Virus record (IMG/VR): IMGVR_UViG_3300025771_003046
Length of the DNA: 64,000 nt
Reading direction: 5' to 3' (one strand)
DNA from: an uncultured virus (IMG/VR IMGVR_UViG_3300025771_003046)
Lineage: Duplodnaviria > Heunggongvirae > Uroviricota > Caudoviricetes
A program made the position numbers and the translations under genes. Below are positions 3,594-55,500 of the stretch, in pieces. Position 1 is the first letter of the stretch, and each line of letters opens with the position of its first letter. Under the pieces are notes generated by a model. It saw nothing but the letters and a program-made list of their open reading frames with translations. It searched no databases and was not told where the DNA came from.

Positions 3594-6500
3594 GGCTCGT
3601 CTGGCCTTCTCAATATAGTTCTACCACTTACGTCATTACCATCAGTTCGATTTTCTCGATAAAGGTTACCATAATAGTGTCCCGATGATCCTTCGCCTTC
3701 AGTAGTTTGATTAGCTCGTCTAATTAATTTTAAATTTTGTTTAAACTCGCCGCCACTAAAACTATTTGACACCCCAAGTATTTGAAATAGTCCACTAAAC
3801 GGTCTTACAAGCTCAGGCATATTCATTACAAAATTTCCCATTTCTTTAGGATAATCAATCGGTGTTTTAAAATTGATAATACATAGTACTTCGTTATTTA
3901 AATATTCAACAGTGCCATCCTTAGACACATTTGGTGATAAAAATCCTGACTTATAATTTCCTTGATCTGTAGGTAGATAGAACGGATCTCCCCAAATTTC
4001 CATTGTAGCAGATATCATTTCTATTTCACTGTTAATAATTCTATTATGAAAAGTTTCAGCAATACGTCTAGCAGTAGTTTTTGAATAACTGCCATTTAAA
4101 AATTGATGATCATTCCTTGCTATTAGAGATATAGCTCTTGAGTCATAATCATCGTTATTTTCGGTTCCTGAATCATTTTCCGCTATCCGAGGATTGCTAA
4201 CTATACCAGGTGCTATTGCTAATTTATTTGTGTTGTCATAACCAGATCCTACGTCACTAAGAACATTACTAACAAATGCATTATTAAAATTAATATTAAA
4301 ATCTATAATATCTTCATTTTTTCCTGTATATATGTAATCATATTCTTTTACAGCAGAATCCTTTAACTTTTTTGTATTCATTGGAGATTCACCAGGTGCT
4401 AATGTCTTTGCTTCGTCTGGTAAATACGGATGTACACAATAAACATACGTCATTCTATGCCTACCAATAGATTTTTCGATATCTGTGTCATATTCAATAA
4501 AAACCATAGGCTCAATTATAAACCATTTCTTTTTACCGTTATTTGTTTTTTGTGGGGCTTTTTGACAATAGTCTGTATCTAACATTACATCTTCAATTAT
4601 TTGTGTAATTTTTGATTGCTGAGGATACGTAAAAAGGTTAGAAGTTACGGCAGTTTCTAATTCTGCAGAATTCTGAAACATAATAGACTTTTCTTTTGCG
4701 GCGTTAGGATCGTTTGGTCCAACAGACACTGCTGCCGGTGAAGCATTAGACGAATCATTAGATTTAGTAGGGTCTCCTAAAATTTTTGATCTACCTAGTT
4801 CGTTTACATTGTCTTCGTTCAGTCCCCATGCTCTTAAAGAACTATATATCGGAGGAGCATTAAAAAATTTAACATCCGATTTTACTGTTGCAACTTTTTC
4901 TGGTGCATTAGGATTGTTATCTTGTCCGCCTCTTTCTGTTTGATATTGGGTTTCTGCATCTATCATTAGTGCATTATGGTTTGTTTTAAAACCGTTATAA
5001 TTATTATACGCCTGTATTACACTATCTTTCTCTTTAGGAAATAAAATTAAATATCTATCATATCCTTTTACTTTTTTAGATTCTTCTAGTTTTTCTATAT
5101 GTTCATTAATATTTCTTGTTATACTTTTATTTGATGTTTCTAATACTTCTGCAGCAGTTCTTCCTGAAGCATTTACATCAGTTTTTATAGTATTAATAGA
5201 ATCTTCAAAAACTATTTCAGAGTATGCTACTGCTTTAACACCGTAAACGCTTCCTGATTCTGTAACGTCAAAATCTGTGTTTATTATCATAATAGGGATA
5301 TATTTGTCAATTACGCCAGGAGCTTTTATTTTTTCGCCTGTCGGTCCGTATCCTTCAAATGATATTTTTAAACAAAAAGGTATTTTGTTAAAACTTGAAT
5401 ATTGCTTTTCTTCAGCAGTAATTTTTAATGCTTCTAAAAATTTACCCATACTATAAGGTTCAGTTACTGTAAAATTTATAGTAGTTCCTAAAGATACTCC
5501 GGTTTTTGAATTTGGGGCTATTACACTGTCAATTTCCAAATCATCTATAAAATACTCTGCGTGGCCTTTTAATTGTTCAACCTCAGCAGTAGTAAGTACT
5601 CGTCTATCTGTGCCGCCGCCTGATCTAATTATTACACTTTCAAATCCGTCAGTTTTATATTTTGATGCATTGTTATATTCTTCAGGAGATAAAACTCCTA
5701 AAGTAATTCTATAATTATATATACTATGTACTCTTAACGGATTTTTAAGTTTATTACCTTGCATAGGTATTCCGAGATTTGCAAGATCGTCAGTTATAGA
5801 CATAGGGTCATTAAATAACTCTATAAACGAATCTGCACCTTCTATAATATCAGTAAGTCCTGTAAAAAATTTATTACTTCTATCAATTTGTAAAAGGTCT
5901 GATAATGGCTGTTGTAAATTTCCTGTTAGATTAGATAATTGTCCTGCAAAATTTGAAATTTGACCGATTGTATTTGTAAGATTTGTTAGTTTTGCATTTT
6001 TTGAGCCAAAAACACCAGCAATATTATTAGCCGATATTAGTGCATTATTAACATTAGAAAGATTAGATATGCTGCTGCCTGGTTTTAGATTTCCGAGGCT
6101 AGAATTAATACGATTTAAATTGCCTACGATAGAACTCGAACCTCCTAGAAGATTACCTGTTACACTATTAACTTGTTTTGAAAGATCATTGTTTAAGTTT
6201 ACTCCTAGTATTCTAGCAGTATCAGAAAGTGGATTTTTTATTGCTCCAATGTTTCCTGCAAAATTTCCAGATAGTCCAGTTATCGAACTTATTTTACCAG
6301 CTGTTTCTAAAACACTAAGTCCAGATAACGACGTAGATAGTATACTATCAAGAGCAGGTATTTTTCCTGCTATACTTCCAAGCCCACCACCGGTTGCTTG
6401 ACTTAAAGAATTAAGACTTGCAATTGTACCACGCAATGCAGGATTAATTGTACTAAGTGAATTAGAAATATTTGCAGCAACTTTATTTCGTTGAGGATCT

Positions 6501-23089: not shown

Positions 23090-24187
23090 ATGTTGGACGC
23101 ACTGAAAACACTTTTTGAAAACGATGTTGTTTCGGAAGAAATCAGAGCTGAAGTTGAGGAAGCTTGGAATGCGAAGATCGTCGAGAATCGCCAACAAGTA
23201 ACCGCTGAACTACGTGAAGAGTTCGCACAGAAGTACGAGCACGATAAAAATACAATGGTGGAAGCTATTGATCAGATGTTATCAGAAGGATTAGCAAGTG
23301 AAATTGCTGAGTTTGCTGAAGATAGAAAGCAATTAGCAGAAGCTAAAGCAAAATATGCTGTAGCAATGCGTGAAAATGCTGATCTATTAAAAACATTTGT
23401 TGTAGATCAGTTACAAGGAGAAATTCAAGAACTTAGAGCAGACAAAGCAGCAATGGCTGAGTCTTATGCTAAACTTGAAGAGTTCGTTGTAGAACAGTTA
23501 GCTTCAGAGATAACAGAGTTTCATGAAGACAAAAAAGATTTAGCAGAAACAAAAGTACGTTTAGTACGTGAGGCTAAATCACACTTGGCTAAAGTTAAAA
23601 CTGACTTTATCCAAAGAAGTGCTACACTAGTATCTGAAACAGTTGCAAAGACTCTTACTAAAGAGATTAGCGCACTAAAAGAAGATATCAATGTCGCACG
23701 TAGAAACGACTTTGGTCGTAAAATATTTGAAGCATATGCAGCTGAATACACTAATTCATATTTGAATGAAAAAACTGAAACTGCAAAGCTACTAAAAGTT
23801 CTTGATACTAAAAATCAACAACTAGCAGAAGCTAAAAAGTATGCTGCAAAAGCAATTGCTATTGCAGAATCTAAAGAAGCAGAAAAACAAAGACTTCAAG
23901 AATCAGCAATAAGAGCAGAAAAAATGAATAATCTTCTTGGACCTTTAAGTAAGGACCAAAGAGAAATTATGACAGACTTACTGGAATCAGTACAAACATC
24001 AAGACTAGAATCTTCGTTTGAAAAGTACCTACCATCAGTTATTGATAGTAATACTCCAGCAAAGCAAAAGGCACCACTAATAGAGGCAAAAGAAGTAACA
24101 GGCAACCGTGAGCAATCACAAACAAGTAGTAAACAAGCAGACGACGGAAATGTTATTGACATCAAGCGTCTTGCTGGATTAAATTAA
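23090..24187 (+). CDS. Prohead scaffolding protein, T4 gp22-like
   Basis: Coiled-coil E/K/A-rich protein between the protease and MCP; FGRKIFEAY motif; SD AGGAGG. Confidence 0.8.
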   Translation: MLDALKTLFENDVVSEEIRAEVEEAWNAKIVENRQQVTAELREEFAQKYEHDKNTMVEAIDQMLSEGLASEIAEFAEDRKQLAEAKAKYAVAMRENADLLKTFVVDQLQGEIQELRADKAAMAESYAKLEEFVVEQLASEITEFHEDKKDLAETKVRLVREAKSHLAKVKTDFIQRSATLVSETVAKTLTKEISALKEDINVARRNDFGRKIFEAYAAEYTNSYLNEKTETAKLLKVLDTKNQQLAEAKKYAAKAIAIAESKEAEKQRLQESAIRAEKMNNLLGPLSKDQREIMTDLLESVQTSRLESSFEKYLPSVIDSNTPAKQKAPLIEAKEVTGNREQSQTSSKQADDGNVIDIKRLAGLN

Positions 24188-24197
24188 GGAGATTATT

Positions 24198-25379
24198 ATG
24201 TCGGAACTACTAGAAAGTCGCTGGCAGGATACGAAAACAGCACTTCTTGAAGGCCTAAATGGCAACAAGAAAAGCGTAATGGCAGCAACATTAGAAAATA
24301 CTCGCAAGTATCTTTCAGAAACTGCTACAGCTGGTGCTACATCTGCCGGTAATGTCGCAACACTAAACCGTGTAATCCTTCCAGTGATTAGACGTGTTAT
24401 GCCAACAGTTATAGCTAATGAGCTAGTTGGTGTTCAACCTATGACTGGACCAGTTGGTCAAATCCACACACTAAGAGTACGTTATGCAGATAGCATTTCT
24501 ACAAGTGGTGGCACAGACGTAACAGCTGGCGAAGAGGCTCTAAGCCCATTCAAAATTGCTGAAGCTTATTCAGGAAACGAAGGCAACCCAGGTACTGCTG
24601 ATGTAACAGCAGCTATGGAAGGTGTTGCTGGTAACAGAATGAGTATTCAGATCTTGAAACAAACTGTGGAAGCAAAGTCACGCAAGCTATCAGCTCGTTG
24701 GACTTTCGAAGCAGCTCAAGATGCTCAGTCACAGCATGGTATTGATGTTGAAGCAGAAATAATGGCTGCTCTAGCACAAGAAATTACTGCTGAGATTGAC
24801 CAAGAAGTTTTAGCTTCTTTAACTTCGCTAGCCGGTACTGCGGTTGAAACATACAACCAAGCAGCAGTATCAGGTACAGCTACATTTGTTGGTGACGAAC
24901 ATGCAGCACTTGCAGTTCAAATCAACCGCGCATCAAACCTAATCGCTCAGCGTACACGTCGCGGCGCAGGTAACTGGGCAGTTGTTTCACCATTCACACT
25001 TACACTTCTACAGTCAGCAACTACTTCGGCATTTGCTCGTACTACAGAAGGTACTTTTGAAGCACCAACAAACACTAAAATGGTTGGTACACTAAACAAC
25101 GCAATGAAAGTATATGTAAACACATATGCATCAGATGCATCACCAGTACTTATTGGGTACAAAGGTACAAGCGAATCAGACGCAGCAGCGTTTTATTGCC
25201 CGTACATCCCACTAATGAGTTCAGGTGTTGTTCTAGATCCAGGCACATTTGAGCCAACAGTATCATTCATGACTCGTTATGGATATGTTGAGCTAACAAA
25301 TACTGCTTCGTCTCTAGGTAACGCAGCTGATTATCTAGCAAAAGTTGCAATTGATAATTCAAATGTAAGCTTTAGCTAA
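24198..25379 (+). CDS. gp23: Major capsid protein, T4 gp23-like
   Basis: VIRRVMP..IANELVGVQPMTGPVGQI...VEAKSRKLSARWTFEAAQD...EITAEIDQE...AAFYCPYIPL...FMTRYG. Confidence 0.96.
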   Translation: MSELLESRWQDTKTALLEGLNGNKKSVMAATLENTRKYLSETATAGATSAGNVATLNRVILPVIRRVMPTVIANELVGVQPMTGPVGQIHTLRVRYADSISTSGGTDVTAGEEALSPFKIAEAYSGNEGNPGTADVTAAMEGVAGNRMSIQILKQTVEAKSRKLSARWTFEAAQDAQSQHGIDVEAEIMAALAQEITAEIDQEVLASLTSLAGTAVETYNQAAVSGTATFVGDEHAALAVQINRASNLIAQRTRRGAGNWAVVSPFTLTLLQSATTSAFARTTEGTFEAPTNTKMVGTLNNAMKVYVNTYASDASPVLIGYKGTSESDAAAFYCPYIPLMSSGVVLDPGTFEPTVSFMTRYGYVELTNTASSLGNAADYLAKVAIDNSNVSFS

Positions 25380-25402
25380 GTTATAGTTAATACAGATAAA
25401 AG

Positions 25403-25428
25403 ATAGGCGCTACGGCGCCTATTTTTTT
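25403..25428 (+). terminator. Rho-independent terminator after MCP
   Basis: ATAGGCGC-TACG-GCGCCTAT (cUACGg tetraloop) followed by a T run. Confidence 0.9.
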
Positions 25429-25450
25429 GACTTTTTTTCTAATAAAATGG

Positions 25451-25478
25451 TTGACATTGTCTGTATAGATGTTATATT
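25451..25478 (+). promoter_or_regulatory. Sigma70 promoter driving a non-coding transcript
   Basis: TTGACA 25451-25456, 16-nt spacer, TG-n-TATATT 25473-25478. Confidence 0.7.
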
Positions 25479-25484
25479 AGTTAC

Positions 25485-25737
25485 ATAACAAAGACGACGG
25501 TCTGAGTTAGATAGTGCAAGGAAGAGGAGTAGCAGGCTCCGAACTTGGCTCACACACTGTAGTGGTGCTAGTAGACTGTGGAGACACGGAGTGCTAGAAA
25601 AAGTAAACCTAACTAGTTTACTGTGAGGCGCCTAAGTTATTTTCGAGCGACTGTACGCTTGGGTTGTTGGTATTCGCAAGTCCAACCTATCCATATTATA
25701 AAAAAGGCCTGTTATTAACTTAGCAGGTCTTTTTTTT
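25485..25737 (+). ncRNA. Candidate stand-alone multibranch structured ncRNA (~250 nt; family not recognised)
   Basis: Own promoter and terminator, no ORF in the track. Stems: GATAG 25510/CTATC 25687; GGAGT/GCTCC 25526-25540; AACTTGG 25542/CTAAGTT 25632; CTCACA 25549/TGTGAG 25622; CTAGTA 25568/TGCTAG 25592; CTGTG-GAGA-CACGG 25576-25589 (GNRA); GTAAAC/GTTTAC 25603-25621; GAGCG/CGCTT 25645-25660; GTTGG/CCAAC 25666-25686. Confidence 0.75.
25701..25737 (+). terminator. Rho-independent (possibly bidirectional) terminator
   Basis: AAAAA-GGCCTGTTA-TTAACT-TAGCAGGTC-TTTTTTTT. Confidence 0.85.
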
Positions 25738-25744
25738 ATAAATA
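25737..25744 (+). promoter_or_regulatory. Late promoter TATAAATA
   Basis: Exact motif, four nt before ATG 25749, with no SD. Confidence 0.6.
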
Positions 25745-25748
25745 CATC

Positions 25749-26153
25749 ATGCAGGATGAATATGTATCTGCATTTTATGATGTAGTACAAGAAACTAGAC
25801 AACATACTGGTATTGAATTACCAGAAACTATTGAGCACTATGTTGTAGTCTTACTGGCATCTCATATTGATAAATCAAATTTTTTACCTTCTCATTCGTT
25901 TGCAAAATCGTTTTTACAATTAAAACAAGCAAGTGATGCAAAAACATTAGGCGATACATGTTTATTTGTAACGGGTATATTTCCAGATTACGGAATTGAT
26001 ATAGATTATTATTCAGATATAGGTAAAACTAGTTATAGTACCGTTGCTAATACACTAAATGGCGAATTATTTTCTACTTTAAGCGTACATTTTGACATTG
26101 TTAGAGATTTTATAAATTGTATTCCTAACAAACGAGATAAATACTTAGTCTAA
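25749..26153 (+). CDS. Hypothetical helical protein
   Basis: 134-aa ORF. KTLGDTCLFVTGIFP...YYSDIGKTSY recalls an uncharacterised bacterial family (from memory, unverified). Confidence 0.7.
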   Translation: MQDEYVSAFYDVVQETRQHTGIELPETIEHYVVVLLASHIDKSNFLPSHSFAKSFLQLKQASDAKTLGDTCLFVTGIFPDYGIDIDYYSDIGKTSYSTVANTLNGELFSTLSVHFDIVRDFINCIPNKRDKYLV

Positions 26154-26211
26154 AAGTGCTTCGTAAGAAGACTTATGCGGACCCACCGCGTAGACCTAGA
26201 ACGTCAAGGAG
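26136..26211 (+). promoter_or_regulatory. Late promoter plus structured 5' leader
   Basis: GATAAATA 26136-26143; CTTC-GTAA-GAAG GNRA hairpin 26159-26170; TTATGCGG-ACCCA-CCGCGTAG 26173-26193; SD AAGGAG 26206-26211. Confidence 0.55.
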
Positions 26212-26217
26212 AAAACA

Positions 26218-26676
26218 ATGGGAAGACCATTAAACAAACGATTATTTGCAGATGCTACTACAGGCCCAGGTGCAGGAGATGAAATTAAAGTAAACTTTCA
26301 CGATGGCGCAGGCGTAAAAGAAGGTTTTATTGTAAAGCAAAAAGGATCTAAAAGATTTGTATGTTCAGAAGCAGGAGCATCTGATACTGTACATACATGT
26401 GTACTAACAACTGGAAAACTACCATCAGCATTAGCAGCAGGCGAAATGTCAATATCATTTAAGATGGATGATGAAGAAACTTACACAGTAAGTAAAATTT
26501 CTGGACGTAAAGCTACATTGTCAGCACCGAGTGCAACAGGATCAAACGCCTATGACGGCGCAAGTGTAGCATGGAACTTTGCAACATCACTAGTAGACGG
26601 CGCAGCACAGGTTGAAGAAGCTGGTGCAGATGACGTTGCTAACACAGATGACGATGATTTTACTGAAGACGCATAA
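26218..26676 (+). CDS. Probable virion structural protein
   Basis: 152 aa, strong SD, late promoter; MGRPLNKRLF...GFIVKQKGSKRF. Confidence 0.7.
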   Translation: MGRPLNKRLFADATTGPGAGDEIKVNFHDGAGVKEGFIVKQKGSKRFVCSEAGASDTVHTCVLTTGKLPSALAAGEMSISFKMDDEETYTVSKISGRKATLSAPSATGSNAYDGASVAWNFATSLVDGAAQVEEAGADDVANTDDDDFTEDA

Positions 26677-26686
26677 GGATTGAGTA

Positions 26687-27055
26687 ATGACTAGACCTAT
26701 TAATGTTTTTGGAACAGTAGTAAACTATCTAAAAGATTTAATAGTAACAGTCAAGATTGGTTGTGCTAAGGTTTCACCTTTTGGTGTTATCTTAGCACAA
26801 ATAACAGATACAACATTCAAAGTCCAAGATGATCTTGGAAATGAAGGAATATGTACACTTGTTAATAAAAGAAACAGTAACGATTTAGAAGAAAATGAAA
26901 TGACAATAAAAGGGTTAGTAACAGATAATGTTAGTTTTGTTTTAATATCAAAGGTAATAAAGGATATTATGTTTGATTTTAAAAATATAAGATATTATTT
27001 TACTATAGATCACGACTCAACGTCTAATATTCTTTTATTGACAGAAAGAGGGTAA
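26687..27055 (+). CDS. Diverged paralog of the upstream gene
   Basis: MTRPIN vs MGRPLN; ILAQITDTTF vs IVKQKGSKRF; ICTLV...LEENEMTI vs TCVLT...LAAGEMSI. Confidence 0.6.
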   Translation: MTRPINVFGTVVNYLKDLIVTVKIGCAKVSPFGVILAQITDTTFKVQDDLGNEGICTLVNKRNSNDLEENEMTIKGLVTDNVSFVLISKVIKDIMFDFKNIRYYFTIDHDSTSNILLLTERG

Positions 27056-35189: not shown

Positions 35190-38100
35190 ATGTCAACAAT
35201 AAGACTCAAGAGAAGTGCTGAGCCGGGTAAAATCCCATCGATTGAACAACTAGAACTAGGCGAAGTAGCTGTCAATACACATGACGGCAAAATGTTTATG
35301 AAAAGAGACCAAAGTGGTAACTTTGCTATAAAAGAATTTGGCGCAAGAGACGCCGCAAGTAATGTGTTTTACGTAACACAAGACGGATCTAATACTAACG
35401 ATGGTAAAACAATAGGAGACGCATTTGCGACTATTGATTACGCTTTAAAAAATATTCCAGAGGGATCAACACTATATGTAAAGGCTGGACAGCACACAGT
35501 TGACAATCCAGTTAAACTTCCGGCATTTGTTGCTATTGTTGGTGACTCACTTAGAACTACATTTGTACAACCAAAAAATCCAGCAGAAGATATATTTTGG
35601 GTTAACAACGGTTGTTTCCTTAAAGATATGCGCTTTAATAACTACATTGCACCTAGTGCAGCAGTTTCGTTCCCCCCAGATGGAAGCGCCGGATCAATTA
35701 TGTGTTCACCGTATGTACAAAACTGTACATCATATACTACAACTGGTACAGGTATGCGAGTTGACGGATCAGTTGTTACTGGCCTACGCTCAATGGTTGT
35801 TGACGCCTATACACAGTATAACCAGGGTGGTATCGGTGTGCATCACCTTAACAGAGGTAACACACAGCTTGTTTCGATCTTTACAATCTCATGTGATATT
35901 TCAATTATGTGTGAAAGCGGAGGCTTTTGCTCACTAACTAACTCAAACACATCATTTGGTAACTACGGACTTATTTCCGATGGTTATAGTGAAGCACTAT
36001 TTGGTGCGTCTGCTGGTGCTAACATTAGTAGAAACTCGATGTTTATGAATGACCTAGTAACGGTTCCATTTATTCAAAACGCATCTGTGTTTAGTGGCAC
36101 TGGTGAAGTTTATACAATTTCAGAAGCTACTCCGATTAAAGTCGGTCAAGGTGTTGTAACTGGACCAACACTAACCCAAGAAGACAGTGATTTATTATTT
36201 GCTAGAGAAAGAATTTTAGCCAATAGAGAAGTAATTCAAAGATCAACAGTTAACTTTGTGAAAGATAATTATCAAACAGGCGGCGAATTTGACGAAGCTA
36301 AATGTGCTAGAGATAGTCAACTTATACTTGATGGTGTAGGTTTTGATGTTGCACTAGATACAAACTTTAACAGTGTTTATAATGGTATTTCGTATCAAAG
36401 AGCAAATGCTAAATTTGTTATTAATACCCAGTTTGAAGCAACAAAAGGCGCAATTGATTTCTTAAAAGCCGAAACAGCAGCTTTACTAAGTGGTACTTCA
36501 TTAACTAGAGCTAATGCAGGATTTGACGATGTAAAAGGAATTCTTGACGGTGGTGTAATAAGCACTACAGTTCCAGGAGATGGTGTAGCCGACGCACTTA
36601 CATTTAGTTCAACACTAGGTGTAACAGATGGTATAAATGCTAGAACAATTTTACAAGCGAATATTGCATTCTTACAAGCAGAAGTACTTGCATTTAACGA
36701 TGATTATAATGCAACGGCGATTGCTGCTGACGCTACCGGTGCAACTACAGTAGTTTATGATAGAGAAAAGTGTCAAAGAGATGTACAATACATTGTAGAC
36801 GCTCTTTCATATGACGCACAGTATGGTGGCAATAGCGCAACAGTATCGGCTATGAATTCTTATATTGTTGGTACAGGAATTGATCAACTTCCAGCAGATC
36901 AAAGAGATCTTACTGCTGATTCATATGCTCACTTAGCAGATATGGTTGCAGCAATTTTAACTGATCCGTCAGTTGATCCTGGTACAAAATTAAGTGCTGG
37001 TAGTCCAGACAATTCCGCAGCGGTTACTGCTGCATCTCTTTCAGGTACAATCGAAGCACTTGTAGATACATTTGCAGGAGTATTAATTGAAGATGCAACG
37101 CCGGCTGGCACACCAACTGCAACTATTCCAGCAGTAGTAACTCCAAATGTTACAACATTGGGTGTAGCAGCAGAGTTTACAACATCGCAAACTGCAATCA
37201 CAAATGCGTCTGCACAAATTGTAGATGATGTAATTGCATTTGTTAATCAAGAATATAATTTCTCTTTCAACCAAGAAAAATGTGCAAGAGATTTACAAGA
37301 AATAATTGATGCAGCTAAAATAGATGCTGTTACAAACTCTTTGTACAATCAAACTGTAGTTGGTTTAACATACACAATGGAAAGTAGTGCTTATCTACTT
37401 AACTTACAAAAAACACAAACCGCAGCAGGTATTCAATATGCTAGAGATTTAGTTACAGCAGACGGTAATTTTACAGATACTACAGACAGAACTGAATTTA
37501 TTAATGCTGTAAACGAAGTAATTAACATATTAAATACAGGAACTCCAACATCTGACTTAACAACTGGTACTTTTGCAACTAATTTTCCAACAAGCACTGA
37601 TTATTCTAATGCAGCAAGTCGTGCAGCCGCAGCTGAAGCAATAATAAACGGTATTCCTTCTTTACAGACTGATGCTCTAACTTTCCTACAGAATGGGAAC
37701 GCAGGTGGTGGTTTTGATTTTTCAGCCCAAGCCGGAGAATTTTCAAGTTTAGCTAGTGGAGGTACTGTTTCATCAGATGAACTAAAATCAGTATACCAAG
37801 ATATGGTAAGAGATGGAACATTTACCAAGTGTCAAAGAGACGTGGCTTACTTAGCACAAGCAGTAGCATTTGATACAATGTATGGTGGTAATAGTGCAAC
37901 TTTGCGTGTAGCAAAATCATACTTTGTAGGTGCAATTGCAGGTGACGACGATACTGAAATATCACAACTAGGTGGCGGACAAAAGAATGCAACACTTGCA
38001 CTATATGCCTTCTTGGCAGTACAAATTGCGGCAGCTGTTAGCGCTGCGTCAGCAAATGCAGGGTTAGGTTCGGGCTCTGGTGCATCAAAAACAATTAATC

Positions 38101-41100
38101 AATTAGTTGCAGTTGTTACTGATCATATTGACGCAGACGGTGTAGCATTAGCTTCTTTAGATACAGTTATACTTGCCAGCCCTGCCGACGACGATGAAAT
38201 TCTAACAGTATCTGAAATTGAAGCAGTTGACGACGAAGCAATTAATGATACAATATTCTATCTACAAGATGCATTTGTACTACTAGACTTTAACGAGTCT
38301 AAGTGCTACAGAGATACAGGTATTATTATTGATGCTGTTGTAGATGACATGGTACTAGGAACAAATTATAAATCAGTAGTTTCTGGTAGAACATATTCAA
38401 TGGATTCAGCGGCACTTGTTATTGCGGATCAAAAAGTAGAAACATTAGCAGCAATAAATCATGCAAGAGACGAAGCACTAGGATTTATCAATGACTTTTC
38501 GTCTAATGCTTCAAAAGTTACAGCATATAATAGAGTACAGTCAAACTTTAATTTGATCTCTGATTTAATTAGTAAGTCAGAGTATGCATTTAAATCATAT
38601 ACAGTAGTAGACGCAGATTACAATCCGACGGCTGCTGGTAACTATGGTAGTACTTCTACTCCTGCAAACAGAGTTATGACATTAACAATTGGCCAGCATA
38701 GTTTTACAACATCAGATACAGTTGTAATTGCTCCTAATAGTTTAACATTCCAGTGTTATTCAAGTGGTGATAATGAGTTCCAAACTATTACACATCCAAG
38801 AGAAGTAGCAGGTCAAAGTGCAGATCCAAATGCAGTATCTCCAGGTTCAGATCCAGCATTTGAAACTCCAGTAGATATTGTTGCAGTTACAGACACTACA
38901 ATTACAGTAGACGTTGGTGTAAATACTGGTGCTGGTAATGTTGAGCATACATTTATTAGTGCTACAGAAAATGGTATAACATATGGTAATTCGTTTATTA
39001 ATTATCCAATGCCAACAAATGTTCTACCAGAAATAAACAGAGCGTTTACAAACATCAAGAAAAACAAAGCATATTTGATTGAAGAAGCAGTTGCTCATAT
39101 CGATCAAAACTATCCGTTACTAGGATACGACAGAGGAACATGCGAAAGAGATATCGGACTTATAATTGATGCTGTGTCATACGATGCAATGTTTGACTCA
39201 AACTTCCGTTCAATTACAGCTGGTAAAGCATATCTAAGAGGTGTTATACAAGTTATAACAGGTGATGTACTTGTAGATGAAACAACTACTACAACAGGTA
39301 TTACTGGTACACTATTAACAATGGATCCAACTAAAACAGTAGTAAATCCAGGTGACGAGTTAACAGTTCTACCAACTGAGCAAAAAATTGCAACACTAGA
39401 ATCATTTAGAAAACTAAGAGATTTACTTGTTCAGATTACATTTGATAATGATACAAAGGCACGTGTAGTAGACCGTATGGATCTTATTATAGATATTGTA
39501 CAAGATGGCGAATCAGTAATTCCAGCAGTAAGTATTCCTACAGCAAACATTACAACTAACGACACAGTAAACTATACAGAAAACTTTAATGCAACTGGTG
39601 TTCCAGAAACAATTACAAACATTGAAAATTCGAGAGAATTTATTATTGCAGAAACAAAGGCATTTATTGATACTAACTTCCCAGCATTATTATCAACTGA
39701 TGCTAACGGTAATATTGTCCGAGACTATAATGCAAACGACAAGTGTGAAAGAGACGTAGGTCTTATATTAGATGCACTAAAATATGACTTAACATATGGC
39801 GGTAATATGGAAACCTTAATAGCTGGTAAAGCATACTTCTCAGATGTTGTTGCATCAGCAGATGGACCAGTTGATTTATTAGGTTCACGTTCAGTAAACA
39901 TAGATATTGTTAATGCTGGTGGTATTCAACTGATTAATCCAATTACAATTACAACATCTATTAAACATGGCTTAGTTGATGGATCACAAGTAACACTACT
40001 AGATATTAGTGGCGTTGTTGAACTAACAGGTAAAACTTTCTTTGTTAAGAAAGTAAGCGACACAGTGTTTGAATTATATGATGATGCAGCCCTAACAATC
40101 CCATTAGACGGTACTACTGGATTTACAGCATATGCTAACTTAGGTGGTACTGTAAGAGTTAATGCAGCAGAAGTAATTGCTACTGTAGAGTCTTATAACT
40201 TCCTAGCAGATCTAATATTGACACTAGGTAATGGTGTTGCTCCAGTTAATCCACAGCAAACAATTGTTACAGCAGGAGCACTGACAACAACTAACAGTCC
40301 AAATGGTACTAGAGCAAAATCACTTGTTGACGATATTATTACTATAATTGAAAACGATAGCTCTGTTCCAGTTGAGTTGCTTGCAGATCCAAGTTGGGTC
40401 ACTGGCTACAATGCAACCGAAACATATCCGTTAGAATTAAATGGCACCGATCTTTATTCAGACTTCTTGATTATGCAAGGTGAAAAAGATGATATACAAT
40501 CAGAAATTACAAGATTTATTGAAGCAAACTTTGCTTATGATAAAAAAGTATGCCGTAGAGATATGGGATACATTATTGATGCTACATTATTTGATGGACT
40601 ATACAACGGTAACAGTGCAAGTTATGATGCAGCAAGACAATACTATACACAAGGTAAACTAGTTATTCCAGCAATCCAGCGTAAAGCAACAGGTGACGCA
40701 ATGGAACTTCTTAGAAAGCGTATAGGTGATGTACTACGTTCAAACAGAGTTGTTGCAGAACAACTTCCAACATCGCCGACATTAGTGCTACAAGATACAA
40801 CTACTCCAGCAGCCACAATTACTGAAATTCTAAGAATTCAGAAAAACTTTGATGTACTTGAAAGTCAAATACGTAGAGATTATTTCATCAATGACTTTAT
40901 TGATGTAATTGATCCTGACTTTAATCTTCAAACAGAAACAGCAAACAAAATTAGAAATAAGATACTTGCTGAAAAAGAAAACCTACAGGTTAAAACAATT
41001 AAATTTATCGATACAACATTTAGAGAATTCCGTTTTGATAGAGAAGTTTGCTCAAGAGATGTAGGACTTATTTTAGATGCAGTTGCAATGGATGTTGCAC

Positions 41101-44100
41101 TAGGTACTAACTATAATTCAATTATTGCAGGTCTATCATATCAAAGAGGTAGTTTGTCAATTGGTACTGTTAAAGATGAGCAGAAGCCACAAACAATAGC
41201 AGCTATTGAATTCCTAAAAACAGAAACACTAGCAATTTCAGGACTGTCAGCAACAGGTATTGCAAGAGCAACAGCAGCATTTGATGAAATTATAGACATC
41301 TTTACAAATGGTGAAACAAGTACTAGAACAGCAGCAGATGCAATTACATATCCAGTTCCGACAGGTGTTGATACTAACAAACAAAACTCACATGACTTGT
41401 TACGTGCTAACAGAGACTTTATATCTGAAGAGATTATTGAATGGATTGAAGATAACTTTACAAACTTTGAATATGATGAGTTTAAGTGTGAAAGAGACAC
41501 AAGAATTATACTAGATGCAATTGCACTAGACGCAGCTCTAAATACAAACTATAACACAATTACAGTAGCACTTGCATACAAGCGTGTAAATGCACAACTA
41601 GTAATTACAGATCAGTTGATACAAACTGTAGCAGCTATGGATTATCTACGCAAATTAGTAGACGAAAACAAAGATCTAAGTGTTATTGGTCGTGCAAGAA
41701 TGACACGTTTAATCGATGATATTATAGAAATTGTACAATCAGATACAACTGACTTAGATGTATTTGACAGTACAAACTTTGATAGTACACTACTTAACGC
41801 ATACGAAAACATTGAAATGAATGCACCTAAAAATGCAACACAAGATGAAATCGATGCCAAAGAGCAGTTAAAACTTAACAAAGAATTCTTAGCAAGTGAA
41901 GTATTAGCGTTTATCAACTTAAACAATCCGACACTAGACTATGTTGAAGCTAAGTGTAAAAGAGACGTTAAATTCTTACTTGATGCAGCAGCATTTGACT
42001 TACTATACGGTGGTAACTCAGCAACTGTACAAGCGGCTAATAGCTACTTTGTAGGAACAGCTAACCAGTTAGGTGATGACGAAGTACAAGCAACAATCGA
42101 TGCTTATAACCATTTAAAAACTGTTATTGAACCAGTTGTACTTGCAACTAGTGAAGATAACAATCCAGTATATGTACCAACAGCTGGTAATAGTATGCGT
42201 CAAATTATCGAAAGTGATCCAGGAACAGCTACTGAAGTTGCAGCTATTCAAGCATCGCTTGATATTGTTATTGCTAGAATACAAGGCACACCGACACCAA
42301 CACTAGTTAAGCCAAGTTTAACAGGTGCTGATGCTAACTTAATTAAAGACTTTAATGAAATATCAGAGACTGCTTCAGTAGAAGCACAGAAAGTTGTAGA
42401 TTATGTAAATGATCAATTTGCAAACTTTACATATGATATTGACAAGTGTGCAAGAGATGTTAAACTAGTTGTACTAGGCGCAGCAATTGACTTAGAGTAT
42501 TCAACTAACTATAACAGTGTAACTAATGGTCTTTCATACCTAAGAGGAAATGCTAAGAAAGTTTCAAACGCATTCCAAAAAGCAATTACACTAGCCGCAC
42601 TTGATAAACTAAAAACACTAGCAGCTACAACTATCGGAACAGGTACAGGTTATGCAGCAGCAGTAACAGCAGTTAATGCAAGTATTGATACAGTAAAAAC
42701 AATATTTGATGAAGGTTTAGTTGGCATAACACCAACAAACGCTGTATATGATCCAACAACAGGTGTTATGGATCTTACAATTGGCGAGCATACATTCATA
42801 CAAGGTGATACAATTACACTAGAGCCAGGCAGCTTGAAATTTACTTGTGCAAGTGACGGAAACAACGTTGTACAAGCATACCCAAGAACAAGTGATCCGG
42901 CATTTAATTATACACTAAAAATTATTGACACTGGTAAACTAACAATAAGTGTAAACGTTGGAGTATCATCAGAAACATCAGCGCACACATTTATTACAGC
43001 AGATGAAAAAGCAATTAAAACTGGTGCTCTTCCAAATGCAGTTCCGGCGCTAACATTTGCAGGTATAGATGCAACAAATGACTCGGCTTATGCAGCAAAA
43101 GCAATACTTGCTAACAAAGCGTTTATTGCAGCAGAGATGTCAGCATATGTTGTAAATGATCCTAACTTTATACTAGTTGGTAACTACGATGAAACAAAAT
43201 GTCGTAGAGATTCAAATAATATATTAGATGCAGTTGCATTAGATTTGCGTACAGGTTCAAACTATAACTCACTATATGCAGGTATTGCATACACAAGAGC
43301 AAATAGTGATTATGTAATTAGTGCCCAAAAATCAGCAACAATAGCAGCTATTGAATTCTTAAGAGATACTGTAAAAGCACTATCAAATGTTGATGCAGCA
43401 GCAGACACAAGAATTGATTCACTATTTGCAATTATTATCGCAGCAATTAACAGTGGCGCTACAAGCACGTTGCTTCCAGGAGGCGCTACAGGCGTTCCAC
43501 TATTAAGTCTTCCAACTCCGAATACTCCAATTGCAGGCGGCGCAGATGCAGCAGCACGTTTAACATATAACAGAGATGCGTTAGCAGAAGAAGTACTAGA
43601 ACACATTAACCAAAATGCAAATGCTATATACCTATCTATGGATCAAGCTAAATGTTCAAGAGATGTAAAATACATTGTTGAAGGACTAGCACATGATGCA
43701 GTATATGGTGGTAACATTGGTGCTAAACTAAATGGCGAAGCATACTTTGTAGGTAACGATACTGAACAGTTAGGCATTGGTCAAAGATCTGCAACAGTAG
43801 CAGCATATCAACATCTTGCACAAGTAATAGAGCAGTTAGTCGGCGCAGGTGTAGCTGATGCTGGATTCACTAGCGTAATATTAGTAGCTAACCCAACTCA
43901 AGCGTGGAGTGATAATTCAGTACCTAATGCAGCAACAATAGCAACTTACTTAGCAGACAGTTCAACTGGGTTAATTGAAACTTGCATAGTTGCACCTATT
44001 AATGCAAACAAATTGGCTAACTTCTACACACCAACAGCGGCATCATATGTTCCAACTACAGGTGTACTAACACTTACTGTAACTGGTAATCCGTTCTCAA

Positions 44101-47100
44101 ATGGTGATACAATTAGACTAGCAGAACGTAGCATTGGATTTAAATGTCAAAGTGATGGATTTAGAAAAGTATTCTACTATCCAAGAACAACTGATCCAGC
44201 ACTTAACTCAGACTTAACAATAAGTAACGTAGTAGGTGATAGTTTTGACGTCCAGATTGGTGTATCATCAGAAGAAAGTACACATCAGTTCGTAGGACCA
44301 GCTACAAATGCAATCATTGATAGCACATTACCAGATGATGTACAACCAGCAAGTGCTCAGTATGTAACAACTGTATCGTTCACAGATGCAGCAACAGCAA
44401 TTGTTGCAGGATCAGGAACAGCAGTAGATTCAACAATATCTTATATCAATTCAGATCTAAGCTTTAACCAAACTAAGTGTGAAAGAGACACAGGTTACAT
44501 TGTTGAAGCATTAACACATGATACATTGTACGGCGGCAATTATGCAACTACACAAGCAGCTCTAGCTTATAGAGTTGGTGTCGCAGGACAGTTAGGTAGT
44601 AATTCACCTGAAACTACAGCAACAGTAGCAGCATATGGTACACGTTTACCAGCAGTAGTACAAGCAATTGTTCAAGGCGATGCACTAACACCGTCAACAG
44701 GCAATTCAGTGACTCAAGTTGCAAATGCAAATACAGTAAGCCCGTGGACTAATGCTAATGCAACTATTGCAGCAGATATTCAAAATATTGTAGATGTTAT
44801 TGAGCATGGCGGTGATCCACTATCAGTTGATGCTTCGATGATAGCAGAAACTAACATAACTGAAGGTACAATATATGATGCAGAATCAGGTGTACTAACA
44901 CTAACACTTAGCGGCACATCTACAGGACTAGTAGCAGGTACAAGCACAATTAGACTAGCACGTAATAGTTTAACATTTACTTGTGCAAGTGATTCACATG
45001 CTACTTCATTAACATATCCAGACAAAGATAGTTTTGGTTATGATAGAGAATTAAGAGTATTAAGTGTTGCAGAAGCAGGTAACACAACTATTACTGTTAA
45101 CATAGGTAATGCACGTAAACTAGGTGCTACTTCAGCAGATAGAATACACAGATTTGTAAGTGCAGCAGCTAATGCAGTTGTATTACCAATTTCACCAACA
45201 AGACCAACTATAGCAAACACATTTGCTACATCACTTGTAACAAAAGCCGATGCAGCAAGCGATAACTTTGGTGATTTGATAAATGCATATCTACTATCAG
45301 ACTTCCCAACAAGCACATACGATAGAACACGTTGTAAGCGTGATGTAGGATTTATTGTAGACGCTCTATCATACGATGTACTATATGGCGGTAACAGCGC
45401 AATGCGTGAAGTTGCAAGAAGCTACTTTAGCTTTGGTCTAAACTTACTAGGTGATGATTCTAAAGAAACAGATGCAACAATATTTGCATATGAGCACCTA
45501 AGTAGTATTATTGGAGAGATTGTACAAGGTGTACAAGTAGGAAAAGCTACAGGTAACTTATTAGTACAAACATATGATACAGCAAGTACACTAGCAGAAG
45601 CAGCAGTTGCTCAAACACTACTAAAACTAGTTACAGATACAATTAGAGATAGAAGTGTTAATAAGCTAGATGAGCAAGAGCTACCAGATATTACTTGGGC
45701 AGCGTCAGAATTCCAAAATGACTTTGCAAGCATTACTTTTAACAAGTCAGTAGCACAAGCTGATACACTACAGTTTATTGACGATAGATACACAACATTT
45801 AGTTACGATCAGTTTAAGTGTTCAAGAGACGTTGGATTGATCTTAGATGCTGTTTTAGCTGATATGGTAATGGGTGGTAACTACCAGTCATTACTAGCAG
45901 GAAGCAGTTATTACAGAGCAAGTGCGTTTATTGTAAAAGGCGATCAGCTACCAGAAACAATTGAATCAATCAAATTCTTGAAGAAAGAAGTTGAGAAAAT
46001 CTTAACAGATCCATTGTTTACAGCAACAGTTGTTCCAGGTACATATCCTAACCCAACTATAAGAGCTATTACTCCGTTAGAAGCTATTGAAAATGCTAAA
46101 ACACTAACTGAAGTATTTGGTGATACGCAAGAGTATGCAGATCTTATTGCAAGATTTAATGATGTTCTTAGAGTTATGGAAAATGGACTAACTAACGCAG
46201 CTGAAGATCAAATACAATTTGTTGCTCCAACTGGAATTACAGGAACAAGAACTAATGCTAAAGACATATTACTTGCAAACAAAGAATTCTTTGTTGAAGA
46301 GTCAGTGGCGTTTATCAAAGAAAACTTCCCACTAATTGGATATGACAGACAGACTTGTGAAAGAGATGTAGGACTAGTTCTTGATGCTCTAGGGTTTGAC
46401 TTAATGTTTGGTTCAAATATGCGTAGTATTACAGCAGGTAGATCTTACTTTAGAGAAGGCGCTGCTGTTGTAAGTGCAGATCAAAAGAAAGCAACACTAG
46501 CAGCATTTGAATTCTTAAAAGTTAAAGCAGCAGAAGTTGTAAGCAGTGCAATACTATCAAATGGTTCTTACGTAGCACCAGGCGGAAATAAAGAATTTAT
46601 CATAACAGTAGGTGCTGACTCATATGAACAAAAACCAACTGGTGTATTCTACTTAGATGGTATAGAGCAGCCGATAATAGAACTAGATCCGGGTGCAGTA
46701 TATACCTTTAATCAAGATGATCCAACTAACGCTTACTTTGGCGATAATCGTCATCCTCTAGTGTTTAGCACAACAAGAGATGGTGATAATGCAGGTGGTA
46801 CAACTTATGACACTGGTATTGCTTACTACTTAGACGGTGTATCAGTTGACGAAGCACAGTACGAAAGAGGATTTGCTAGAGCAACACTACGTAGAGTAGA
46901 ACTTGATCTTAGAGGCAAGTATACAACAGAACTATACTATGCAGGCGGCGCCCGCAAAGGTATGGGTAACTTAATCTACGTAAAAGCAAAAACAACAGGT
47001 GAACCGATTAAAAAGTCTATACAAGATAATATGAATGTTATTCTTGCACTTCTTGATAGAGGTAATGTTACTTGGCAGCCATATGATGCAGAATATAAAA

Positions 47101-52569: not shown

Positions 52570-55500
52570 ATGTCTTTTATAAGCACGACAAGAGTAATAG
52601 AGAACAATCAAGAGGTTTTATTCGAAGGCCCATTAGATAAAGAAAGTAATGTACACACAGTTGCCGTACTGAATGAAGGTGTTTCGCCTAATTCTACAAC
52701 CGATCCAATTAAAGTTACATTAAGTCTTTATGATGCATCTGAGCCCGCGACAAGACCTTTTGCGATACTAGAAGTTGCTCCAGGTACTGATGCACAGTAT
52801 ACTAAAGTTATAAACATACGTCCTGGAGATCAACTAAGAGCCGAAACTGATGGTGGTGAAGTCACTATTATGATCGGCGCTTTCGTTGATGAAGATACTC
52901 TAGTAACAAGTATTTTTAATATAACAGGGCAGTATGATCATACAGTTACATATCAACCATATGATGTTGCATATTATCTTGGGTCAACATATGTTAATAC
53001 AACAGTAGACCAAACTGCTGTATATCCTACACAAGTTAATGGCGGTTGGACACCTTTAGGTTCTGGATTTAACGCATATGGTGAATTTGATCCACTTGTA
53101 TTATATCCGCCGTTGTCTGTTGTTAAGTGGGCTAACAATGTTTATGTTACAGTTACAGGATCTCCTGTTGGAGTTTATCCGAATGATTATAACAGTACGT
53201 GGATTTCTTTTACATCATTAACAAGTGACGAAATTCCAGATACGTCTGGTGTAAGTGCAAACGTTGCCGCAAGTATTACAATACTTAATAACAGATTAAA
53301 CACACTTACTACAACTGAAGTCCCAGAAGCATCTGATGCCGATTTAGAAGCAGCATCAGGATTTGAAAATGCTTACTTTACTAGAGCTAGAGCTCGTGAA
53401 TCTATTAGTGTAACAGGTGACTTAATTTATGATGTTAACACTGGTGTATTATCGGCTCAAACATTAACACAAGATGATGTTAATATATTCATTGACAATA
53501 GAGTGTCAAAATCATTTGTTGATGCATTAGGAGTTGATGCAGATACAGTTGATGGAATTGAAGGCACAGTATTAGCACGAACTGATATATCTCCAACATT
53601 TAGTCAAAACATTATAGTTTCAGGAGAAATGCGTGGCGACCTACGTGGTAATGTATTAGCTGACGATAGTAGTATTATAATCAATCATGCTACAAAAGAA
53701 ATTAACGGACGTTTCGAAGGTACACTAATTGCAGCAAATAGTGATGTTATTTTAAATACAGGTATAGATGGTTTTGACGCTACGTTCACTGGTACTACAT
53801 TTGGTGAACATAGAGGTGATGTTTTATCAGACGATTCGAATGTAATCATTGATGCTAGTTCAGGATTAATAAGCGGTGACTTAGAAGGTAACGTCACTGC
53901 AACCTTTGGTGTGTCACGATTTAATGATATTATTACTGATAACATTATTGTTCAAGAAGAATTACAAGTTGCTAACATTTTAGGTAACATTACGTCAACA
54001 GGTGTTAGTACATTTAATAACGTTGATATTAATGGCGGTTATATTGATAACGCTGTTATAAACACAACTAATATTACAGGTACAACTATTGTAGGTACCT
54101 ATATAGAAGCACAAACTGGTGGATTTAGAGGTGATATTCTATCTACAGGTACATCACGTTTCAACGACTTGATCGTTACAGGTGATCTAACATTTAACAC
54201 ATTAGAGGTACAAGCACTTGCTGACTTTAAATCTCTTGTAAATATCGACGGCGGACTTACAGTTGGCGGAACACTTAACGTTACTGGTGGAACTACATTT
54301 GGTAATATTAATGTTACTGGTGGACAAATTAGTGGCGTTACTTTGGGTAGTGGATCTTATCCAGTTGATATCGTTGCAGATGATGTAACAATTTTAAATT
54401 CATTTACTGCTACAGATGTTACTGCTGAATTTTCGACATTAATAGTTACAGACGAAATGACAGGTGATGTCAGCGGTAACTTGAGAGGAAATGTATTATC
54501 ACAAGATGGTACAACTGTTATAATAGATGCATTTGCTGGAATTATCAGAGGCGACTTAGTCGGCGACACAGTAGGACAACATACTGGTAATGTTGACGGT
54601 AATGTTGTAGGTAATGTAACAGGTAATGTTACTGCTGCTGCTGGACTATCGTCATTCTCTAGTATGAATGCACAAATTGGTGACATTGCTGCTCTTGAAG
54701 CAGGCTCATTAACAGTTACTGGTGCAGCAAGTTTTACAGGTGATCTAACATTTGACACACTACAAATTGCTTCATTAGCAGTTAATAACACATTGACAGT
54801 TTCTGGTATTTCAACCCTTGGATCAGTAGACATCGGCGGCGGCACAATGGATGCTGTAACAATCGGTGGCAATGTGCCTGCAAGTGTTACTGGTACAATT
54901 TTTACCGGTGACAAAATGTTTGCTGATTTATTTACAGGTAGCCTAAAGGGTGTCGTAGAAGGATCAGTTGAAGGTGACTTATACGGTAATGTCCTAGGAT
55001 TAGATAGTTCAATCGTTCTAAATACAAGTACTGCAAGAGCTACATTAGATGCTGATGTTACTGGACAGATTGATGCAACAGCAAATGGTGGCGGCGAAAG
55101 TAGATTTGATGATATAACCATTACTGGTGTATTTTCGTTACAAGGCGGCGGCCAACTTACGGGTGATCTAACAGGTAATGTAGTAGGTGACGTTACAGGT
55201 GATGTATATGCAAGTAACGGAGATAAGATTTTAGAAACAGGCAACGGAACAACTATTCCTGCAAAGTTAACAGGTAATGTAGAAGGCGAAGTATTAGGTA
55301 CATTTACTGGTACAGCTTCTGGAGACTTCACAGGTGATGTATTTGCTTACGATTCAACTAAAATGCTTGATGCGTTTTCTAATATATTGAGGGGTGATTT
55401 AGTTGGTAATGTAAGTGGTAATGTTTTAGGCGATTTAACAGGTAATGTTAACACTACAGGAACTCAAAGCGATGGTTTCTTTAGAAACTTAACAGTTGAA

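Follow-up and report, generated by a model that had tools for sequence, protein, structure and literature searches.

The window analysed here is a 64,000-nucleotide (nt) fragment of the viral record IMGVR_UViG_3300025771_003046 (109.9 kb, ~30% complete) and is part of the genome of an uncultured jumbo myophage. Directly downstream of its capsid gene lies a structured element (25451-25737, + strand), which an earlier note, made from the sequence alone, had described as an autonomous gene for a phage RNA of an unassigned class. Judged by its sequence and modelled structure, the element does not represent a new class but is a divergent member of the manA RNA family (Rfam RF01745), with carriers and a genomic setting that are new for this family. 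The whole of the evidence is best explained by a self-contained manA-class RNA gene of a jumbo myophage, the product of which probably self-assembles, and we regard this explanation as likely, if well short of certain. In such a gene, the host sigma-70 RNA polymerase would start near 25485 from a near-consensus extended -10 promoter, transcribe an RNA of nine helices (core 25484-25701) and stop at the RNA's own intrinsic terminator (25706-25737). The untranslated RNA of ~250 nt would then, by homology with other members of the family, assemble with further copies of itself via contacts of the loops L5/L7, L8/L9 and L6.

Relationship of the element to the manA family

At the Rfam gathering scores no family was found in the window, and besides manA nothing came near its cut-off in 25350-25800. 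No match to tRNA, transfer-messenger RNA, RNase P, signal recognition particle or 6S RNA was found in the element, in line with the earlier note. With manA, the alignment ran from end to end: RF01745 matched over model positions 1-192 of 192 at 25490-25696, with 44.5 bits and an E value of 3.5e-8 on the whole 64-kb window. We compared 16 copies of the clade with RF01745, namely those that were run with a sub-threshold Rfam listing or that scored above the cut-off. Four were at or above the cut-off (79.9, 78.6, 56.4, and 55.5 bits) and ten were below it (53.2, 49.8, 46.3, 44.5, 43.7, 42.1, 41.7 down to 29.7 bits); L032 and L003 were not listed for RF01745 at E <= 0.01 (L numbers denote the loci of relatives).

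The match also held in the opposite direction. R1, a covariance model built from 7 sequences of this clade only, aligned with all of its positions (1-220 of 220) to the manA annotated in cyanophage S-CREM1 (39.8 bits, E 4e-12). With RF01745 itself, the S-CREM1 locus scored 96.6 bits, and the textbook cyanophage copies of P-SSM2 and P-SSM7 scored 181.6 and 175.6 bits. The manA consensus structure, which consists of a 5' hairpin, a closing stem, a hairpin, a three-hairpin arm, and two further hairpins in this order, was likewise found in the element. Membership in manA is assigned because of the whole-model RF01745 alignment, the homologues above the cut-off, and the reciprocal match of R1 to S-CREM1. 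It takes the place of the unassigned class of the earlier note, which had named a hit in an Rfam search as the refuter of its own proposal; in substance, that search led to RF01745.

RF01745 had no match in the whole records of PA5oct, 2.275.O, and Phosso or in the contigs of two large relatives, a result of low weight, as this search gave no positive anywhere. R1 had no match in the 6-kb capsid loci of the same three isolates. When the element, its top-scoring homologue, and the manA of S-CREM1 were compared with isolated phages by blastn, only self matches were returned, because the family is too divergent for blastn.

The family was originally listed as a likely cis-regulator and riboswitch candidate, and its drawing carries a tentative 'pseudoknot?' label (Weinberg et al. 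2010, PMC2864571). The supplements of that paper, in the places shown, hold only an alignment, tables, and drawings for manA and no added discussion. In the genome paper of S-CREM1 (OP535465), manA is merely annotated in the parts of the text available (Zheng et al. 2023, PMC9964418). Our literature search on manA function found nothing beyond these two papers and a 2026 preprint, which is discussed below.

Compared with RF01745, the element has the same helices in the same order, the GNRA-capped middle hairpin, the conserved junction, and aquatic phages as carriers, and it shares with the manA copies of P-SSM2 and P-SSM7 the same type of near-consensus promoter directly 5'. In contrast to known manA RNAs, its carriers are relatives of jumbo myophages (PA5oct, GAP32), not T4-like cyanophages or Photobacterium, and the window copy stands between its own promoter and terminator after the capsid gene, not just before a metabolic gene. 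The manA of S-CREM1 lies flush between tRNA-Leu and tRNA-Asn. Both are RNA genes set among stable-RNA genes and not ahead of an ORF, and in three members of the clade (L045, L107, and L093) the element also runs flush into tRNA-Gly. The ends of the S-CREM1 RNA would come from tRNA processing, whereas those of the window RNA would be set by promoter and terminator. The tRNA gene cluster of T4 includes small stable RNAs that are phage-encoded, abundant, and non-coding, are made alongside tRNAs, and have no known function. Their likeness to the present RNA would be one of analogy alone.

Conservation of the RNA fold

We fetched 80 loci around related capsid genes (599 of the 600 candidate stretches encode a capsid relative). 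R1 matched the window and 24 of these 80 loci, in every case downstream of the capsid gene and on its strand. Of the 45 loci that extend 1500 nt or more beyond the capsid gene, 17 contained the element; the figures were 7 of 18 for loci with 350-1499 nt and 0 of 17 for those with less. In A2, the alignment of 24 distinct rows, 92.7% of the cells were paired, compared with 32-44% when the partners were slid. Double changes occurred in 43 of the 52 pairs, a level reached by 0 of 500 shuffles, and all 11 model helices were kept.

A second set was collected independently of the capsid gene by scanning viral contigs for a 14-nt motif. It comprised 80 loci, of which 45 matched R1; the remaining 35 had no R1 match at E <= 0.001, and a 14-mer can occur by chance in such a collection. 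The capsid gene ends 95-1358 nt upstream in 38 of the 45 copies, and 7 lie in other contexts. In A5, the alignment of this set (41 distinct rows), 95.5% of the cells were paired versus 31-42% with slid partners, and 34 of the 52 pairs showed double changes. The + strand of the window element folds at -82.4 kcal/mol versus -66.3 +/- 4.6 for shuffled sequences (z -3.49; 0 of 200 shuffles as good), whereas the - strand has no excess over shuffles (z -0.32). The fold is conserved as RNA, and its signal is strand-specific.

The manA-class structured core covers 25484-25701 on the + strand (~218 nt; 215.2 bits with R1). We numbered its helices P1-P9, and the correspondence with the numbering of the preprint was deduced from the helix order and the GNRA loop, not from figures. 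According to the covariance models, P1 spans 25486-25509, and P2, the closing stem GATAG/CTATC, pairs 25510-25514 with 25687-25691. P3 (25517-25547) follows within the closing stem. The arm P4 (25549-25554 with 25622-25627) carries the three hairpins P5 (25556-25566), P6 (25571-25594), and P7 (25603-25621), and P8 (25631-25663) and P9 (25666-25686) complete the structure.

The models recovered the fold that the earlier note had drawn by eye, with its GATAG/CTATC closing stem, an arm leading to three hairpins (one of them GNRA-capped), and two more hairpins. A further pairing proposed there, between 25515-25523 and 25673-25678, did not survive the comparison: the segments are complementary in the window, but only 47.6% of the cells were paired in the 24 distinct homologues, there was no double change, and the pairing was no better than with shuffled or slid partners. 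The statement that the element holds no open reading frame (ORF) agrees with our results. The + strand contains only two GTG frames, of 27 and 31 amino acids (aa), and the frames in the 25 homologues disagree in start, end, and length.

Transcription signals and the behaviour of the cassette

The capsid gene ends in an intrinsic terminator at 25398-25427 (+ strand; 13-pair stem with 5 G-C pairs, then a T run). This terminator shields the RNA gene from the late transcription of the capsid gene, and it is kept in L010, a relative without the RNA cassette. A sigma-70-type promoter follows at 25451-25478 (+ strand), consisting of TTGACA, a 16-nt spacer, the extended -10 TG, and TATATT. It agrees with the consensus at 11 of 12 positions in addition to the TG and is the best of 8 promoter-like sites in 24000-27000. 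The predicted transcription start lies near 25485, and early expression would be expected from a promoter of the sigma-70 type. The pattern TTGAC, spacer, TGnTAnnnT was found in 23 of 25 homologues with spacers that vary, and the -10 element ends 6 nt 5' of the RNA in 19 of the 25. The strict promoter pattern recurs in 38 of the 45 copies of the second set, and the other 7 have TTGAC and a TAnnnT hexamer without the TG. The manA genes of P-SSM2 and P-SSM7 each have a 12/12 promoter (TTGACA-16-TG-TATAAT) that ends 8 nt 5' of the RNA.

The intrinsic terminator of the RNA gene lies at 25706-25737 (+ strand) and comprises a hairpin at 25706-25729 (-11.9 kcal/mol) and T8 at 25730-25737. Because this terminator sets the transcript length, the untranslated RNA would be ~250 nt long. 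A hairpin and T run stand 3' of the RNA in 19 of the 21 complete homologues, with stems of differing sequence; the two exceptions are L045, which continues straight into tRNA-Gly, and L032. A terminator was also found at the 3' end of the manA RNA of P-SSM7. In L154, L096, L141 (~100 nt after the manA RNA), L097, L142, and L132, ORF-free sequence with long closing stems takes the place of a terminator; these sequences are apparently extra RNA modules of the same unit.

In L010, the capsid terminator is immediately followed by the box and the start codon region of the 134-aa ORF, the ORF that comes after the element in the window. The ~300-nt block of promoter, RNA, and terminator is missing there as a unit (~25437-25737 on the + strand in the alignment, with edges that are ambiguous within T runs). 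The insulation by the capsid-gene terminator, the promoter, and the separate terminator had all been read from the window by the earlier note. Together with the promoter in 23 of 25 homologues, the terminator in 19 of 21, and the loss of exactly that block in L010, they bear out its description of an autonomous RNA gene.

Loop contacts and probable self-assembly

Five manA RNAs have been reported to form closed RNA-only oligomers in vitro, namely a 60-mer icosahedral cage, decamers, and octamers (Ren et al. 2026, 10.64898/2026.07.01.735769). They are built from pentamers through the kissing loops L5-L7' and L8-L9' (or L3-L8') and a contact of the GNRA loop L6. This preprint on cryo-electron microscopy (cryo-EM), which deals with manA_A0F1, manA_pho34_A767, and others, still calls manA a putative cis-regulator in the parts available.

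The window RNA contains the putative counterparts of these loops, all on the + strand. L5 (GTAGT, 25559-25563) includes TAGT (25560-25563), which is complementary to ACTA (25612-25615) in its partner L7 (CTAACTA, 25609-25615). GCGA in L8 (25647-25650) is complementary to TCGC in L9 (25674-25677). L6 is the GNRA tetraloop GAGA (25581-25584) that caps P6, and its closing pair covaries; it is a GNRA loop in 25 of 25 homologues (GAGA in 18, GAAA in 5, GUGA in 1, and GCGA in 1). The three core pairs of L5/L7 are paired in 90.0% of cells in A2 and 94.6% in A5, and one of them covaries (AU:9 GC:8 in A2; AU:22 GC:5 in A5).

For L8/L9, a crude test on the longest Watson-Crick run (4.41 within own sequences versus 3.70 with the loops of other sequences) was replaced by a permutation of duplex energies. 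Own loops paired at -4.08, compared with -2.46 +/- 0.37 for permuted loops in the first set, and at -4.29 versus -2.38 +/- 0.27 in the second; 0 of 5000 permutations reached the observed value in either set, in tests that ignore the relatedness among sequences. Of the 28 distinct loop pairs, 23 form 4 or more pairs with an energy of -3 kcal/mol or lower. By our reading of the second-set listing, there are about ten different complementary versions of L8/L9, the pattern to be expected if the contacts between loops in the cryo-EM structures are of importance in nature.

Complementarity and covariation are seen in both L5/L7 and L8/L9. The window RNA belongs to the same family as the cage-forming RNAs and has the same nine-helix layout, the GNRA loop L6, and complementary L5/L7 and L8/L9, which in manA_A0F1 are the intermolecular contacts of the pentamer (Ren et al. 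2026). We infer that the loop pairing of the window RNA is intermolecular rather than intramolecular, and by homology with the RNAs that form particles in vitro its most likely mode of action would be self-assembly through the covarying kissing loops.

Occurrence in RNA libraries

The sequence occurs in public runs with the labels seawater, freshwater, estuary, and salt marsh. Contigs from three of four metatranscriptomes cover the element without or nearly without differences (25474-25795, 25474-25843, and 25506-25680), although contigs from RNA libraries cannot show ends, strand, level, timing, or even transcription, and contig depths cannot rank genes. The contigs of metatranscriptome X17 leave 25413-26119 uncovered, a hole that is uninformative, and a contig piece of X18 inside the element has a depth of 117.5, which is not usable as an expression level. 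The edge at 25474 that two of these contigs share falls within the -10 hexamer, 11 nt short of the predicted start. This edge is taken as a break of the assembly graph and not as a 5' end.

Stand-alone gene or cis-acting leader

Several points weigh against a self-contained gene for a self-assembling manA RNA. The 44.5 bits of the window copy are below the Rfam gathering cut-off of 55.2. In the second set, 12 of the 37 complete copies have no T5 run within 75 nt; where inspected, tRNA-Gly, a hairpin with a shorter T run, or ORF-free, apparently structured sequence stands 3' of the RNA in such copies. L5/L7 amounts to only 3 base pairs, one of them covarying, and covariation looks the same for intermolecular and intramolecular pairing. 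The cage results come from a preprint, were obtained in vitro with other members of the family, and are carried over by an inferred mapping of helices. Two of the RNA-library contigs continue past the terminator and end within the next ORF, at 25795 and 25843, and therefore read-through or carry-over of DNA is possible. No terminator was found in P-SSM2, the manA RNA of which ends 16 nt 5' of purL, and given this copy some family members may serve as leaders. Finally, permutation of the terminator arms against their own RNA gave weak excesses of complementarity (137 of 3000 for the 5' arm and 12 of 3000 for the 3' arm), which relatedness can inflate.

The last three points would also speak for a cis-acting leader, in which the sensing of a ligand or protein by the manA fold would determine whether the polymerase, having started at the sigma-70 promoter, terminates at 25730-25737 or continues into the 134-aa ORF and the neck and tail genes. 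In Rfam and in the 2010 paper, manA is treated as a probable cis-regulator and riboswitch candidate (Weinberg et al. 2010), the order of promoter, structured RNA, terminator, and ORF is that of a transcriptional riboswitch, and in the window alone the 5' arm of the terminator can pair with 25530-25540 at -12.6 kcal/mol. However, the alignment column at which a terminator arm finds its best partner differs from homologue to homologue, so that no conserved antiterminator was found, and the minimum-energy structure holds the RNA fold and the terminator together. The mutual exclusion of fold and terminator through a conserved antiterminator, the platform of a transcriptional riboswitch, is not what this locus presents. 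Nor does it have the 5'-untranslated-region position implied by the Rfam type 'Cis-reg', as the RNA is parted from the next ORF by a terminator and a separate promoter-like box. That position is a hypothesis on the role of manA and not a feature of the RNA, and the accepted member in S-CREM1, between its two tRNAs, does not have it either. The downstream genes have a GATAAATAC-type box of their own, the 3' neighbours of the RNA vary (the 134-aa ORF, a freshwater-2 leader, tRNA-Gly, a radical-SAM ORF, or further RNA modules), and the cassette is dispensable, as in L010. A stand-alone gene is preferred to a leader because no antiterminator was found to be conserved, the next gene is preceded by a promoter-like box of its own, and the cassette is present or absent as a unit; we consider it unlikely that the window RNA is a leader.

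The evidence for an autonomous gene fits equally well with a stand-alone RNA that acts as a monomer, for instance as a decoy or partner of a host or phage protein, with L5/L7 and L8/L9 as intramolecular pseudoknots. The covariation of the loops agrees with such pairing just as well, a pseudoknot was tentatively drawn for manA (Weinberg et al. 2010), and a small ORF resembling a cold-shock domain lies directly upstream in 8 relatives. Against this, the L5-L7' and L8-L9' contacts are intermolecular in the members studied (Ren et al. 2026). No partner protein is linked to the RNA in the window, where the locus lacks the cold-shock-like ORF; a search for this ORF in the 109.9-kb record was empty, which has low weight and proves little at ~30% completeness. 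A monomeric role is accordingly given a low probability. A non-functional RNA, with the structure as a by-product of the spacer between promoter and terminator or of an element at the DNA level, has nothing specific in its favour; the cassette is dispensable in L010 and absent in 28 of the 45 relatives with at least 1500 nt after the capsid gene. It is contradicted by the covariation in 43 of 52 pairs, replicated in the second set, by the strand-specific signal, and by the full-length kinship to a curated RNA family, and is very improbable. The self-contained gene for a self-assembling manA RNA is thus the reading we retain.

The region downstream of the RNA gene

In the window and in relatives, a GATAAATAC-type box stands between the manA terminator and the next gene, and the GATAAATAC-type box of downstream genes is usually followed by a freshwater-2 leader. 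The GATAAATAC box at 26136-26144 (+ strand) of the window precedes a weak match to freshwater-2 (RF02980) at 26157-26220, with 38.5 bits at a cut-off of 49.9. A Shine-Dalgarno sequence and the ATG at 26218 overlap the 3' end of this match. At the equivalent place in relatives, freshwater-2 scored 52-77 bits, with or without a manA cassette (listed for L003, L005, L028, L060, L062, L035, L039, L044, L057, L043, L040, L023, L022, L016, L026, and L001). In these jumbo phages, freshwater-2 appears to be a 5' leader that belongs to the first gene behind the capsid gene. A literature search for freshwater-2 as an RNA motif found no paper.

Within 25737-25751 of the window, a TATAAATAC box ends 4 nt 5' of the ATG at 25749 that opens the 134-aa ORF. 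This ORF starts without a Shine-Dalgarno sequence, and the same arrangement was seen in L010. The box resembles the late box of T4. If it is a late-type promoter, the mRNA of the 134-aa ORF could be leaderless. The + strand copies of ATAAATAC (14957, 25738, 26137, and 52081) all lie 4-74 nt 5' of the start of a + strand ORF (4 of 4); its total count in the window, 5 versus 6.3 expected, is not above chance. ATAAATAC is a candidate promoter box of the phage.

The capsid gene and its neighbourhood in relatives

The head module of the window is of the T4 type, with a portal, a prohead protease, and a gp23-like capsid gene at 24198-25379. By capsid protein, the closest isolates are Sinorhizobium phage Phosso, Vibrio phage 2.275.O, PA5oct, GAP32, and their relatives, at 67-72% identity. 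The gap behind the capsid gene is only ~100-120 nt in PA5oct, 2.275.O, and Phosso.

Across the relatives, the site 3' of the capsid gene is a hot spot of insertion. At this site PA5oct (L083) carries a homing endonuclease (3801-5378), and L049, L038, L028, and L033 carry ORFs of 206-237 aa, of which that of L049, the sole one tested, had no family match. In L025, a radical-SAM/SPASM ORF of 356 aa (4766-5836; PF04055, PF13186) lies directly 3' of the manA cassette. A conserved ORF of 64-70 aa ends at the manA promoter in 8 relatives: L060 (3635-3829), L019 (3407-3619), L049 and L038 (both 4930-5124), L032 (4182-4388), L042 (4248-4454), L028 (2916-3119), and L033 (4857-5051). One copy of it matched the cold-shock domain almost from end to end, but weakly (PF00313, E 0.0045, 17.3 bits at a cut-off of 27).

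A glutamine riboswitch aptamer (RF01739, 43-55 bits at a cut-off of 35) was found between the capsid gene and the manA cassette in 4 relatives, namely L003 (4234-4281), L035 (4233-4280), L044 (4236-4282), and L039 (3972-4021). Three catalogued RNA motifs follow one another within ~600 nt in these loci, and in L003 there is no + strand ORF of at least 50 aa from the glutamine aptamer to the manA promoter. Elsewhere, the window contains two giant + strand ORFs, 35190-50066 (4958 aa) and 52570-63999 (at least 3810 aa).

Implications for the manA family

Since 2010, manA has been on record as a riboswitch candidate without a ligand or a known function, and the recent preprint describes cages in vitro and nothing on their biology. 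The locus described here provides a defined natural manA gene of ~250 nt, from promoter to terminator, in which the RNA behaves as an independent and dispensable gene. The clade widens the carriers of manA from cyanophages to uncultured jumbo myophages. The 'Cis-reg' label is disfavoured because of this gene-like behaviour and because the same near-consensus promoter stands before the textbook copies of cyanophages. Any role of an assembled particle during infection would be conjectural.

We tentatively suggest a broader view, which for now is more doubtful than probable. Jumbo phages of fresh and brackish water may use a strong promoter of the host type to express a mobile cassette of one gene, the only product of which is an RNA that assembles into closed RNA-only particles in the infected cell, and the whole manA family may consist of autonomous particle-forming phage RNAs and not of cis-regulators. 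If this is true, the covariation of the kissing loops would provide, for the first time, evolutionary evidence of selection in nature for the assemblies formed in vitro.

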